From the NCBI RefSeq assembly GCF_003334335.1, contig NZ_QOWQ01000001.1: a stretch of DNA of 64,000 bases, one strand, 5' to 3'. The position numbers are program-made. Of the stretch, positions 15,001 to 21,000 are shown one piece after another; position 1 is the stretch's first letter, and the number at the start of each line of letters is the position of its first letter. The DNA is from Escherichia coli (GTDB lineage Bacteria; Pseudomonadota; Gammaproteobacteria; Enterobacterales; Enterobacteriaceae).

Positions 15001-18000
15001 TATAATTTAAACCAGACCCCATTGTGATTTTAACTGGATTAACGGATTTCTCTTCATTTTTCTTATTTTTGTTCTCCTGATCAGGAACTAATGGTTGCAG
15101 TGGTAGGCTATTATTAATATTTCGTGGCTTCATTTTACATTTCTCTCATTTGATTAGAGCAAAATCCGAATTCGCAGCTTCTGATAATGTCAAATATCAC
15201 CTTATGGAGACGTTACGTAGAATGACTATATTTGTTATCGGCACATTAGGGGTATTAATTTTAGTATTGATGGAAGGTGATTATTGAACAGTAACATCGA
15301 GTCACGGTAAAAATGTGAGGTATACAATGGACATTGAATTTTCGCAGATTCATGAAATGGTCTATATGCATGATATTGTAAATTCGGACTCGAAAAAGAA
15401 ACCAAGGATTCCGTTAAAAAAATTCCTTAATGCTGAGAATGTTCTCACGCAAACAACATCATGGACATTAAATTCAAGATATGTGAATGTTAATTCTGTC
15501 AATAAAGTCAACGTAAAGAGTAAAGTTAAAAACAGTTATATCTCACGATCTGTCAATGATGAGTTTAGTTTAACAGATGATGAAATCAATTCTTTTAAAG
15601 AAACGTTAGTCCTTTCCTCTATTGATTCACTGAGTAAACTGGTTCTTAATAATCCTCTTTCTGTATTGTTTACATCGACTGTACGAAGGAATAATAATCG
15701 AGCTAAGATGAATGTCGAGTTCGACTCATGGATTTGCACCAGATGTTGTTGATACATGATATTTTACATTGCAAGGAGATGTCTAAAATGAAAGATGTTG
15801 ATCAAATCTTTGATGCTTTAGACTGCCATATACTGCGAGAATATTTAATTTTATTGTTTTATGATTAACGAGGTTCCATCTTTTTGTTATCTATTTTAGT
15901 TTACCTTGCACAATGCATTATTGCTCTGTTACCAATGCTCAAAATAAAAGCATGCTTACCTTGCTTTAGTATATTATAGCTTACACTTTTTTCTGGAAAG
16001 ACATAAAAATCAGGAATAAGTTGTGCAAGTCTATCATCATCAACTTGATCCATAATCTCAAACTTATTAACTTTCTTTGATGTTAAATGGGCTGTGTCAT
16101 AGTTTTCAATCCATGTGTATTCAATATTTCGCCGTATTGATTTACTTTCTCTGTTACCTTGTTGCCAGGTTCCACTCAACGCAACAGTTCCTGTTTTATT
16201 TTTTTTGTTATACATAAAGTCGATGGTAAGATTTGCTCGTCCCTGGTCATTAAAAATTACCCAATTTGCAGTGCATGTTTCGTTATATATCATTTTTTCT
16301 GCAGTGTAAGAATAGACAGTGAAGAGAATAAACCCACTGATAAAAACTAAAATAAATAATAAGTTTTTTTTATAATCAATCACGATTAACCTCACGGTAA
16401 GACAGGGTTAAACAGTTTGCCACTTCATGTTGGTTATAGTTTTTATTGCATGCCATAACAATCATCCCCGGTGAGGATTTTGCAAGAGGGAAGTATAACC
16501 ACGGATGTTTTTTACAGTTAATCCCCGAATCCAGTATCCGTGTTTTATATTTATCGAACTCTTTCAACCCATCAATTGTATCTTCTGTTACATTAAAATG
16601 GCAGCCATTAATTTCCGCAACAGTCTTGTAATCCTTGAAAAATGGCTTCGGTTGATTATTATTCCATAGCCAATATGCAGAATATGCGCCTATGACAAAT
16701 GCGCTCAACATAATTAGATGACTTTTTATATTTTTGAGGATTTTGTTATTGAAATTCTTTGCGCCACCAATGCTCTCTTTGTATCCCGCATTAACTTTTA
16801 TGGCAGGTGGGGCATTGTGTGTATGTGCGTCTGTTGACGAGTTTATTACATGATTTTGTATGTTAATGTCATTATGGATCTTGAATCCTCTTCTCGGCAC
16901 GGTTGCAATTAGCGAGTGGGTAGTATCACCAACAGCGCGAAATCCGCGTCTGATAATGGATATGTTCTGATATAACGTGTTAGTAGGCACACGCATACCT
17001 TCTTCTTCCCAGACTCTGGTGAAAAAATCTTGTTGTGCAACCACATCAGGAAAAGCTTCAAGTAGAAGTGATAAACATCGACTGGCTGGCGTTGTCAGAA
17101 CGACGTTAAGATCGGCGTTATGTACCGATATTAATTTTCGGTGCTCAGGCCAGAACTCGATATTATCGTTAATAATCCAGTACATACGTCAATAAACACT
17201 AAATCAATCGAAATGGAGATCACATAGTTTGCTAAGTATATTGGTATTTACGGCATAAATATATATTAATTTTATATTTATCATGATGATTGAAATGAGG
17301 CTTTAATGTTGCAACGTAAAACTTTACGTAAATTAACATGGTTAACATTTATGCCACTATTGTTTGTAAATTCATATTTCGTAATGCTTCTGAATTTTTC
17401 GTGTGATGGTTTTAAATACTATGGTGTTTACTCTTGAGGGGACGGCCTATTTATAAAATACGGACATTTCAATAAATGCCCGTATAAACAGAGTATGATT
17501 CTGGCTGGTCGTTGAGTATCAATGTTGGACCGAATGTGAACGAATAAATAATTCGTTTATTTTACCACCCATTCTCTTTTCGATTCGTTGCTTGTACGCG
17601 TAGATGCTACGGATATCCATATCCAGAACTTCAGCAATCTGATATGGATTATAACCAGAAACCATATACCCCATTATGGTGAATTCCATCTGAGTTAATG
17701 TGTTACCTCTGGTAAATGATAAATAACGACCAATAAATAGTTGTCTGATCTTTTCATTGGCAACATCAAGACCATCATCATTATATATGACAGCAGATAT
17801 TGCTGAGTTGTGTTTTCGCCAGTAATTAGCTAACGATTGCATATTGCGGTCGCTGACTAAAACAATCCCCATGTCAGTACTTGCAAGATAGTCAATCCAG
17901 TCTTTTTCAAGGAATAGACGTAAAAAACTTACTGAAAAATCGACAAAAATATATCCGCTTAATCTCGCATTGTGGTTTTTTGTTAAGATACCTTCTACCA

Positions 18001-21000
18001 CACCACGATTAAAATATGAACTTTCTTCGGGCCACATACAAAAACACGAGTTTGCGCAATACTGCAAACGCGGTGACTCTTCTGGCATTATTTGGCAATG
18101 CATTGAGCAACTATTGCATGTAAGACTTTTATAACGACTACAAAGCCCCATGTTAAGAACCTCCCTATCCGTATATAATTGCATAATTTCATTGGTTATT
18201 GATGATGTCAATACACCATGATTTTGTAATTTTGCCGGGAAAAATTGCGATTAATCTGTATTTGCTATAATTCTGAGTAAGGCATTTAAAAATGCATTTC
18301 TCGTTATCAAATATGATTATGTTTCACTGATTTAATCTTGCATGGTTGAGAGCGGTCCAGATAACTATCTCATGGTATAAGAATATCTATATCGCAAATT
18401 GTTTTTGAATGACCAGAAGATATCTTGCGAATCTAAGTTATGCATCTTAAATAGTCTTATTTAAGATGTTCAGATCTCTTTGTGTGTTTAACTAACTGAT
18501 AATACTAGGATATGACGAGAGAAGTGATAGGGTGGAATAATAACAAATGAATATTATGAAAAATGGAATGGTTCAAAATTGTAGCAATTTTGAACCATCC
18601 ACAACTGATATTAGCTAAAGAACATTACCGATACGCACAGGATACCCACGATCAGCGTAATCAGATTTCCGATGGAACGCCAGGGTTTAAGCGCCGGGAT
18701 GAGATACGTTGACAGCGTAGGCATGATGAAAAGTATCATGGCAATGAGCGGGCCGCTGATCGCGTAAATCATCGAAATCGCGTTCGGGTTAATGCAACAA
18801 ACAATGAAGGTAATCAGCGATACCAACATAATTGATAGTGCGCGGTTAAATGCACGACTTTTCTTTACACCAACCTGCTGTAGTGTTGTTTTGACGACCT
18901 CTGTGGCACCTTCAATAACGCCAAAGTACGTACCCAGGAATGATTTCGACATCGCAACTACTGCGACAATAATCCCGGAAATTGACAACCATGCTGGGGC
19001 GTTCGGCAGCATAGAAAGCGCCGATAAAATGGTGACCCCTTCTTCTTTAGCAGCTTCAATATACGAAGGTGGAATAGAAAGCAGGCAGCTAAAGACAAAG
19101 AACAGTACACTTATGCAGATGATGAGATAAGCGACTTTCATAATTTTTTTGCATTTATCCATAGCGTGTTCGCCATATTTTTCACGTCTGTCTATGGCAA
19201 ACGTAGAAATAATGGGCGTATGGCTAAAGGCGAAAACCATCACGGGAATCGATATCCATATCTGGTGAAGGGTATTCTGATTGAACTCTACCTGGGTTGT
19301 TAATAGATCAGGTTGCCAACTACCGACAAGGTAAATGGAAAGAAATAAGAAATAGGCAATCAATGGGAATACCAAAAATCCCATTACCCGAATAGTGGCA
19401 TGACGTCCCATCAGAAAAATGAGATTCAGAATTAATACAACACCCAGACTCACCAACATACGGATGCGAAGATCAATAACCATATGCTTTGCCAGCTGTT
19501 CCGTAAGTGAGTTGGTAATTGCCACTGCATATATCAACACGACGACAAAAAAGGCGATGAAGTACAGCGTGGTAATCAGATTACCAATCTTCTTGCCATA
19601 GTAGTGTGTTACCGCGCCCGTTATCCCTTCACCTGCTGATGTTTTTGATGAGAGGATGAACTGGCACAAGGCTTTATGTGGCCAATATGTTAAAGGCCAG
19701 GCGACCAGAGCAGTAATAAACAGGACCACAGCCCCTGCCGAACCTAACTGAATAGGAAGGAAGAGCGTGCCTGCACCAACGGCTGTGCCGTAGAGCGCGA
19801 AACTCCACAGAGTTTCTTCTTTAGACCAAATATTAGACATTATCTGAACGTATCATCTACAAATTAAACAAAATGGAGGGCAATTTACCATAAACCAGGT
19901 TAAGTATGGGAGATTAACGCCCTATCTACCCCTCTATTGGTGGGTTAGTGGTTGCAAACCTTACGTGCCAGTTATGTCTCTGACTGCTGCTCAGGCATAT
20001 TTCCTTTGTGATAAAAATCACTTTTTTTAAACAATTAAGATAACTGTAATTAACAATCATTTACTATTGCACTGTTAATTGGTGCGAGGTTGTGATGAAA
20101 GACGTTGTGATTGTCGGGGCGTTACGGACACCTATCGGCTGCTTTCGTGGTGCGTTAGCGGGTCATTCCGCCGTGGAACTTGGTAGTCTGGTCGTGAAAG
20201 CGTTAATAGAACGTACCGGCGTTCCTGCATATGCGGTGGATGAAGTAATTCTTGGTCAGGTGTTGACTGCAGGGGCAGGGCAGAATCCGGCAAGGCAATC
20301 GGCTATTAAAGGTGGTCTGCCTAATAGCGTTTCTGCAATCACTATTAATGACGTTTGCGGTTCCGGGCTTAAAGCACTGCATCTGGCTACTCAGGCGATA
20401 CAGTGTGGCGAGGCTGATATTGTCATCGCCGGTGGCCAGGAAAACATGAGCCGCGCACCACATGTTCTGACTGATAGCCGCACCGGTGCACAGCTTGGCA
20501 ATAGCCAGTTGGTTGACAGTCTTGTGCATGATGGGTTGTGGGATGCCTTCAATGATTATCATATTGGTGTCACCGCCGAAAATCTGGCTCGCGAATATGG
20601 CATCAGCCGTCAGTTGCAGGATGCTTACGCACTTAGCTCGCAACAAAAAGCGCGAGCGGCGATTGACGCCGGACGATTTAAAGATGAGATCGTCCCGGTA
20701 ATGACCCAAAGTAACGGGCAGACGTTGGTTGTTGATACCGATGAACAGCCACGCACTGACGCCAGCGCAGAAGGCTTAGCCCGTTTAAATCCTTCATTTG
20801 ATAGTCTCGGTTCTGTGACAGCGGGTAATGCATCATCCATAAACGATGGCGCAGCTGCGGTAATGATGATGAGCGAAGCCAAAGCACGAGCGTTGAATTT
20901 ACCCGTGCTGGCCCGCATTCGCGCATTTGCCAGCGTTGGTGTAGATCCGGCATTGATGGGAATTGCGCCGGTGTATGCGACCCGCCGTTGCCTGGAGCGT

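Follow-up and report, generated by a model that had tools for sequence, protein, structure and literature searches.

A probable co-component membrane regulator, YqeI/YqeJ, and a separate MatA/EcpR-family regulator, YqeH, at the low-GC edge of the Escherichia coli ETT2 island

Introduction

What kind of regulators lie at the edge of the ETT2 secretion island of Escherichia coli, and do they belong to the type III secretion system (T3SS) beside them? The question is raised here by a 64,000-nt stretch of contig NZ_QOWQ01000001.1 (assembly GCF_003334335.1), referred to below as the window, in which an initial annotation made from the sequence alone had described a ToxR-like regulator with a membrane partner, a LuxR-type regulator and an orphan open reading frame (ORF). 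The four-gene cluster is the known yqeH-yqeI-yqeJ-yqeK, on the low-GC margin of the ETT2 island. E. coli chromosomes in which these four genes are annotated match the region at 99-100% identity, and the window is oriented as the reverse complement of K-12, where the gene order is yqeF, yqeG, yqeH, yqeI, yqeJ, yqeL, yqeK, ygeF (a pseudogene), ygeG and ygeH. In a composition scan, GC content is 31-39% from the start of the window to approximately 19,000-20,000 and about 50% beyond. Positions 15000-18500 have a match in 5,350 of 5,426 complete E. coli genomes, with at least 80% of the region covered in 3,586 of them. Our reading, to which we give a probability of roughly 0.88, is that this edge carries two units: a yqeI-yqeJ co-component regulator that is the counterpart of MarT/FidL of Salmonella, and a separate yqeH gene that is the counterpart of rmbA.

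The YqeI/YqeJ identification is real and correctly interpreted, and it had been published by 2022 at the latest. Kinch et al. 2022 (PMC9214523) described the K-12 and Sakai YqeI/YqeJ as a co-component cassette resembling VtrA/VtrC, with a “YqeJ lipocalin” and a conserved terminal disulfide, called the pair orthologous to MarT/FidL, and reported that the co-expressed periplasmic domains form dimeric complexes; the relationship between ETT2 and Salmonella pathogenicity island 3 (SPI-3) is credited there to Ren et al. 2004. YqeI/YqeJ are also named among co-component transmembrane regulators elsewhere (PMC10269533, PMC13042144), and mutants of avian pathogenic E. coli (APEC) from which yqeI or yqeH had been deleted showed reduced flagella, motility, adhesion and virulence (PMC7552227, PMC9014576). 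Our additions are minor, and comprise Citrobacter synteny in which T3SS genes are lacking, a four-cysteine motif in YqeH/RmbA, variants of two A8 tracts in yqeJ, and the adhesin neighbours of related pairs.

Results

YqeI and YqeJ resemble ToxR/ToxS and MarT/FidL

The evidence for the first unit begins with yqeI (16376..17185, minus strand), which encodes a 269-aa protein read here as a membrane-tethered ToxR-type transcription factor. Its single Pfam domain is Trans_reg_C (residues 28-102, E 4.1e-9), with no receiver domain, and a family profile built from 35 homologues identified the Vibrio cholerae ToxR DNA-binding domain as the best relative in the PDB (2.2e-14), followed by CadC (3.8e-4). 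In the alignment of these homologues, a highly conserved winged helix-turn-helix (wHTH) is followed by a linker that varies and then by a hydrophobic stretch; the C-terminal domain carries four cysteines that are invariant (Cys195, 224, 246 and 258), all of which fall in the predicted periplasmic domain at residues 177-269. One membrane helix is predicted, and the AlphaFold2 (AF2) model contains one long helix at residues 145-176, with a predicted local distance difference test (pLDDT) score of 83-91, and a C-terminal domain of beta2-alpha-beta3 arrangement (pLDDT 70-87). Foldseek with this model placed the ToxR periplasmic domain (6utc, probability 0.97), the ToxR cytoplasmic domain and VtrA (5kew_E) at the top, all with E-values of 0.04 or worse; these modelled matches are consistent with the interpretation and do not decide it. 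The winged-helix, ToxR/MarT-like protein with a periplasmic domain that had been proposed from the sequence is borne out by these results.

The partner gene yqeJ (15901..16383, minus strand) encodes a 160-aa protein, the candidate ToxS/VtrC-like co-component. Its N-terminus consists of a basic tail (MIDYKKN) followed by a hydrophobic segment with a Kyte-Doolittle value of 2.26, and a model built from 96 sequences (pLDDT 93.7) contains one helix (residues 4-30) and eight strands. The resulting layout is a short basic tail, a membrane anchor at residues 5-28 and a predicted periplasmic eight-stranded lipocalin-like barrel at residues 35-159. An exhaustive profile search gathered 128 family representatives, nearly all of 150-170 aa and with the identical N-terminal anchor layout, and the pattern of tail plus anchor is present in approximately 95 family members. 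Members of the family carry two cysteines, the first at about residue 35 (Cys37, which is invariant) and the second three residues before the C-terminus (Cys158, which is present in at least 90%), a pattern that fits a periplasmic disulfide closing the barrel. Fold comparison links YqeJ to ToxS and VtrC at 7-10% identity in structural alignment; as a search of PDB sequences with the YqeJ profile gave no match, this link is made by fold comparison only. The model thus agrees with the initial annotation, in which YqeJ was a small membrane-anchored protein, and the membrane and periplasmic topology on which that description depends is predicted here. Local Pfam and NCBIfam scans of YqeJ, and of YqeK discussed below, returned nothing useful, and the Pfam families YqeJ_C and EcpR_N (PF27348) are known here from precomputed annotations of homologues.

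A similarity search against Salmonella MarT and FidL, which had been suggested as a check, revealed full-length homology for both proteins: YqeI is 40% identical to MarT (E 1e-71) and YqeJ is 42% identical to FidL (E 5e-42). YqeH is 40% identical to RmbA (E 5e-57). The Salmonella locus that holds the YqeI relative also contains mgtC, mgtB, an isochorismatase gene, a gene for a 968-aa autotransporter and a gene for a 205-aa EcpR_N protein, and this gene content identifies the locus as SPI-3 with mgtCB, slsA, marT, fidL, misL and rmbA. The arrangement likened at the outset to ToxR/ToxS or MarT/FidL is therefore one of true homology to MarT/FidL, placed in its SPI-3 context. MarT/FidL and RmbA share domain order, conserved cysteines and the YqeJ_C and EcpR_N assignments with YqeI/YqeJ and YqeH. 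The two loci differ in layout: in SPI-3 the pair faces its target, the autotransporter gene misL, in convergent orientation, with rmbA on the far side of misL, whereas in E. coli yqeH is directly upstream of the pair on the same strand, and yqeK and yqeL occupy the misL position.

Comparison with other named systems shows further likenesses and differences. Unlike its Vibrio counterparts ToxS and VtrC, with which it has no detectable sequence similarity, YqeJ has the terminal disulfide; the periplasmic domain of YqeI differs from those of Vibrio ToxR and VtrA in its four cysteines and, according to PMC9214523, in the absence of a C-terminal helix. GrvA/FidL of enterohaemorrhagic E. coli (EHEC) and PsaE/PsaF of Yersinia have a like co-component architecture (PMC9214523); these are paralogous cassettes at other loci and are likened to YqeI/YqeJ by description only. 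PsaE/PsaF controls a fimbrial locus, and many of the YqeJ_C pairs examined here have fimbrial neighbourhoods as well.

The genes overlap by eight nucleotides, and yqeJ carries two variable A tracts

With GTG 16383 taken as the start of yqeJ, the overlap between yqeI and yqeJ (GTGATTGA, 16376..16383, minus strand) is 8 nt long and comprises the GTG start codon of yqeJ and the TGA stop codon of yqeI. The GTG at 16383 is preceded at 6 nt by a GAGG Shine-Dalgarno (SD) sequence (16390-16393), and the overlap with this start is annotated in the same way in K-12 and three other strains. The RTGnnTRA geometry of the junction was found in Citrobacter, Kosakonia, E. albertii and three distant metagenomic loci; among ten loci from different genera, the 8-nt junction is present in eight as called and in nine when an upstream in-frame ATG is taken for fidL. 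In that Salmonella SPI-3 case (L003, 8851-8869), the called start gives a protein of 154 aa and a 10-nt gap after marT, and is probably too far downstream. The in-frame ATG 18 nt upstream yields a 160-aa protein beginning MGKKAL, which restores the KK tail and an 8-nt overlap (ATGGGTAA). Conservation of the overlap, which the initial annotation had made a test of its proposal, therefore extends across both strains and genera. In PMC9214523, YqeI/YqeJ is treated as an exception that lacks the overlap, but both the RefSeq annotation of K-12 and the GTG with its SD sequence yield the 8 nt typical of the family.

Two A8 tracts lie within yqeJ. Tract 1 (16364..16371, minus strand) spans codons 5-7, so that an A7 allele shifts the frame right after the start codon, and tract 2 (16199..16206, minus strand) spans codons 60-62 and exists as an A9 allele. 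Counted in exact context in complete genomes, tract 1 is A8 in 3009 and A7 in 90, and tract 2 is A8 in 2117 and A9 in 63; alleles differing by one nucleotide occur in approximately 2-3% of gene-bearing complete E. coli genomes. Between the window and strain LR-64-2, the change from A8 to A7 in tract 1 is the sole indel in 35.5 kb, and it is because of this A7 allele that yqeJ is annotated as a 150-aa non-overlapping gene in LR-64-2. A difference of (A)8/(A)9 between K-12 and O157 has been reported (PMC11186120), and clusters of truncated YqeJ exist with 98-348 members each. The A8 tracts may be a mutational hotspot, or the variants may partly reflect homopolymer sequencing error.

YqeH is a MatA/EcpR-family regulator, apparently transcribed on its own

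The second unit is yqeH (17519..18151, minus strand; 210 aa in the K-12 and Prokaryotic Genome Annotation Pipeline (PGAP) annotations). Pfam gives only a weak GerE helix-turn-helix (HTH) in it (ORF residues 171-215, E 7.7e-5) and no receiver or autoinducer-binding domain, which means that the term “LuxR-type” used in the initial annotation applies to the C-terminal HTH and not to the protein as a whole. The NCBIfam model EcpR matches YqeH over nearly the whole profile (2.3e-20), BLASTP places it at 26% identity to MatA (E 3e-16), and its orthologues in E. albertii and E. marmotae carry EcpR_N followed by GerE. On these sequence matches, YqeH is a member of the MatA/EcpR family, the RmbA counterpart, and not a quorum-sensing LuxR protein. 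It is not an EcpR equivalog, with a score of 73 bits against a curated cut-off of 300 and no ecp genes nearby. YqeH shares with E. coli MatA/EcpR, the regulator of the common pilus operon, the architecture of EcpR_N plus LuxR-type HTH; it differs in its location away from the ecp operon and in an N-terminal C-x2-C-x3-C-x12-C motif (residues 12-45; window 18017-18118, minus strand) formed by Cys12, Cys15, Cys19 and Cys32, the first three cysteines of which are lacking in MatA/EcpR. With relatives scanned in one genome per species, the motif was kept in all YqeH/RmbA-like proteins found, down to 32% identity, in six genera (Escherichia, Citrobacter, Salmonella, Trabulsiella, Pluralibacter and Klebsiella), and it could be a metal-binding or redox-sensing site.

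Downstream of yqeH, 35 nt past its stop codon, RNA folding identified a terminator-like hairpin with a U-rich tail (17459..17484, minus strand; -17.4 kcal/mol, z -5.2, with none of 200 shuffles as stable). This hairpin would set the yqeH transcription unit apart from yqeI-yqeJ, and suggests that yqeH is transcribed separately. Upstream, a promoter-like site (18183..18211, minus strand) consists of a -35 TTGACA, a 17-nt spacer and a TG-extended -10 AATTAT; it had the top score of the scan with 10 of 12 consensus positions, and is a consensus match only, in a scan that overall stood at chance (18 sites compared with 16.7 expected from shuffles).

Conservation and neighbourhood of the cluster relative to the secretion genes

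Related loci were compared for selection, gene content and synteny. Between Escherichia species, the ratio of nonsynonymous to synonymous substitution rates (dN/dS) is 0.02-0.04 for yqeH, 0.12-0.20 for yqeI and 0.11-0.23 for yqeJ, and these low values indicate that the ORFs of the cluster are real genes rather than chance ORFs. Protein identity between E. coli and E. albertii is 96% for YqeG, 93% for YqeH, 64% for YqeI, 55% for YqeJ, 41% for YqeK and 54% for YgeH. A sharp step in divergence is visible when window positions 12217-19840 are set against the E. albertii and E. marmotae loci (L011/L016), with YqeG and YqeH at 93-99% and YqeI, YqeJ, YgeH and YqeK at 41-72%, in agreement with the published description of a “fast-evolving cassette”.

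In E. marmotae (L016, 5024-9356), yqeH, yqeI, yqeJ and ygeH are kept, while yqeK, yqeL, ygeF, ygeG and all T3SS apparatus genes are absent, and a LysM/M23 peptidase gene and xdhA come next. Several Citrobacter species (L025-L031; for example, L026, 2045-12941) have yqeF-yqeG-yqeH in synteny with a YqeH that is 76-79% identical, and this site has no T3SS genes within 8 kb. Between their yqeG and yqeH is a second, distant wHTH/YqeJ_C pair in divergent orientation; the closer orthologues of yqeIJ come a few kb later, past rcnA and fimbrial genes. Because these species keep the synteny with no T3SS genes beside it, the YqeH-YqeIJ cluster may be a resident of this chromosomal site, with ETT2 lying beside it, rather than part of the T3SS island. 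The initial view that the regulators were retained from the island may accordingly be wrong.

A wHTH gene followed by a YqeJ_C gene occurs in unrelated contexts in Citrobacter, Kosakonia, Enterobacter hormaechei, E. albertii, E. marmotae and three distant metagenomic contigs. Pairs of the YqeJ_C family usually adjoin adhesin loci, including chaperone-usher fimbriae, an operon like that of the E. coli common pilus (ECP), misL and a ShlB-type transporter gene. On one metagenomic contig (L018, 4265-10498), an ECP-like pilus operon (MatB, EcpB_C, TcfC, EcpD_C) directly follows the pair, which stands in the place of E. coli ecpR/matA. A recurrent third gene of LuxR type beside pairs in other genera was considered and rejected, as neighbouring ORFs of 223 aa in L005 and L019 are not related to YqeH; L026 has a 223-aa ORF in the corresponding position, and this one belongs to the ECs1377 family.

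yqeK, gene limits and the surrounding island

The gene yqeK (15327..15752, plus strand) is a hydrophilic 141-aa ORF convergent with yqeJ. The initial annotation had called it an orphan ORF on the opposite strand, a description that holds: YqeK has no match in Pfam, NCBIfam or the PDB, and its homologues are confined to Escherichia. The E. albertii orthologue is of equal length and 41% identical, with the N-terminal third better conserved. The dN/dS of yqeK is approximately 0.39 at saturated dS, and this weak constraint, together with a good SD sequence, suggests from the sequence that yqeK is a real but fast-evolving gene. Its reading as a decayed misL-like autotransporter gene was ruled out by a tblastn search of MisL against the window, which found nothing. 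Between yqeK and yqeJ lies yqeL (15788..15868, plus strand), an annotated 26-aa ORF (K-12 b4683 and PGAP) whose translation was found in the window. The fold of the RNA between yqeJ and yqeK was no better than that of shuffles, giving neither a terminator for yqeJ nor a structured RNA there, and an Rfam scan of 12000-21000 found no families.

All four ORFs lie within the limits first given for the cluster, 15315-18211, and both ends of that span are longest-ORF limits and not the probable starts. At 15315 there is a GTG that forms part of the GAGG ribosome-binding site for the yqeK start as annotated, with the GAGG placed 6 nt before the ATG at 15327, and 18211 is a TTG within the -35 TTGACA of the promoter-like match described above; the annotated yqeH ATG is at 18151 and has GGGAGG upstream.

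The state of the neighbouring secretion genes was assessed by comparison with LR-64-2, which is 99.966% identical to the window across 35.5 kb. That strain has frameshifts or stops in epaO, epaS, orgA, ygeK, pbl and ygeF and has lost the eiv genes by deletion; its yqeH, yqeI, yqeK, ygeG and ygeH are intact, and its yqeJ has the A7 variant (yqeJ is intact in the window). The contrast drawn initially between an intact cluster and decayed secretion genes thus stands for this locus, with the qualification that yqeJ is not intact in all strains. Judged from LR-64-2, window positions 1-12000 hold ETT2 as a partial island in which eiv is deleted, epaO, epaS and orgA are frameshifted and ygeK has an internal stop. 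The 148-aa ygeF ORF (14687-15133, minus strand), a frameshifted pseudogene in the K-12 and LR-64-2 annotations, has no family match, and the loci compared from E. albertii and E. marmotae hold no homologue of it.

Discussion

Taken with published work, these observations suggest how the two units would operate. The yqeI-yqeJ genes would form an operon with translational coupling, and their products a co-component transmembrane regulator like ToxR/ToxS and VtrA/VtrC. YqeI would be an inner-membrane protein whose ToxR-type winged helix lies on the cytoplasmic side and whose small disulfide-bonded domain lies on the periplasmic side, and YqeJ, anchored by its one N-terminal helix, would present its disulfide-closed lipocalin-like barrel to the periplasm, where, as inferred from VtrA/VtrC and ToxR/ToxS, it would pair with the periplasmic domain of YqeI. 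By analogy with those systems, binding of a small hydrophobic signal of host origin would probably be what leads the complex to stabilise or oligomerise YqeI, which could then activate promoters from the membrane. Control of membrane-tethered YqeI by a periplasmic partner is well supported by this analogy and by the published co-purification; the ligand, the direct target promoters and a link between YqeH and YqeIJ are inferred only.

Several observations weigh against this reading. A minority of strains have a frameshifted or truncated yqeJ. The confidence of the whole YqeI model is low (pLDDT 63), too uncertain for a strong fold claim, which was set aside; its Foldseek E-values are weak, and its membrane segment is moderately hydrophobic (Kyte-Doolittle 1.3 compared with the usual 1.6). 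No adhesin or autotransporter target adjoins the E. coli pair, and the MisL search of the window was empty. The published APEC phenotypes are pleiotropic and come with no demonstration of direct DNA binding, and a K-12 yqeG-ygeL fragment served as a model of H-NS hairpin-forming silenced DNA (PMC12460168), from which it follows that these genes may be little expressed in laboratory conditions.

Silencing and yqeJ variation could also mean that the pair is a remnant nearing loss, functionless in this strain, with ORFs that are intact because too little time has passed. Along with its location in H-NS-silenced AT-rich DNA, the frameshift alleles at both A8 tracts and the truncated YqeJ clusters, such a history would fit the lack of an adjacent target gene and the approximately one-third of complete genomes in which less than 80% of the region is covered. 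We regard it as very unlikely, given dN/dS of 0.1-0.2 at dS of at least 1, gene lengths conserved in three Escherichia species, the retention of every family-invariant cysteine of YqeI and YqeJ, an intact SD sequence and 8-nt coupling junction, and the APEC deletion phenotypes. It is rather more plausible, if still doubtful, that YqeJ is a chaperone only, shielding YqeI from periplasmic proteolysis as proposed for ToxS/ToxR and TcpH/TcpP, with no ligand sensing. The YqeJ fold is the ToxS fold, associated proteins of this kind are described as inhibiting proteolysis or stimulating heterodimer formation (PMC10269533), and YqeJ and FidL have no known ligand (PMC9214523); yet VtrC and ToxS bind bile salts through their lipocalin-like barrels (PMC9214523, PMC13042144), and the sensor and chaperone roles of YqeJ are compatible with each other and are not separated by the present data.

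The relationship to ETT2 admits two further explanations. That YqeH and YqeIJ are regulators of ETT2 itself, kept by co-option as the apparatus decayed, seems to us unlikely. The cluster adjoins ygeG and ygeH, shares the low GC of the ETT2 island and has been listed among the ETT2 genes (PMC3977695), regulation of the ETT2-linked effector gene espE3 by YqeH has been reported (PMC11068852), and VtrA/VtrC and BprP/BprQ control T3SSs (PMC9214523). This explanation is opposed by the Citrobacter species that hold yqeF-yqeG-yqeH at the same site with no T3SS genes nearby, by E. marmotae, which retains yqeH, yqeI and yqeJ and has none of the apparatus genes, by related pairs elsewhere that adjoin fimbrial, ECP, autotransporter or two-partner secretion loci rather than T3SSs, and by the evolution of YqeH, which is as slow as that of the flanking housekeeping genes. 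A tentative proposal, which we would not favour on present evidence, goes further in the other direction: yqeH and the ToxRS-like pair would be an older linked set at the yqeF-yqeG site, predating or independent of ETT2, and would constitute an orphaned adhesin or motility switch beside which the T3SS island was inserted. It draws on the presence in Escherichia, Citrobacter and Salmonella of a YqeH/RmbA-type regulator within a few kb of the pair, in three arrangements, on the four-cysteine motif of that subfamily, which could bind metal or sense redox state, on the adhesin loci that adjoin related pairs, and on the yqeJ A8 tracts, which might be mutational on/off switches. The preferred reading, a MarT/FidL-type co-component pair and a separate RmbA-type regulator at the edge of ETT2, is the one given in the Introduction.

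In Vibrio, Yersinia and Salmonella, virulence is switched on by sensor-regulators tethered to the membrane, and YqeI/YqeJ belong to this class. As the pair is present in most E. coli, K-12 included, it is a reasonable target for experiments, and the observations added here could guide the choice of strains and conditions in which to test it.

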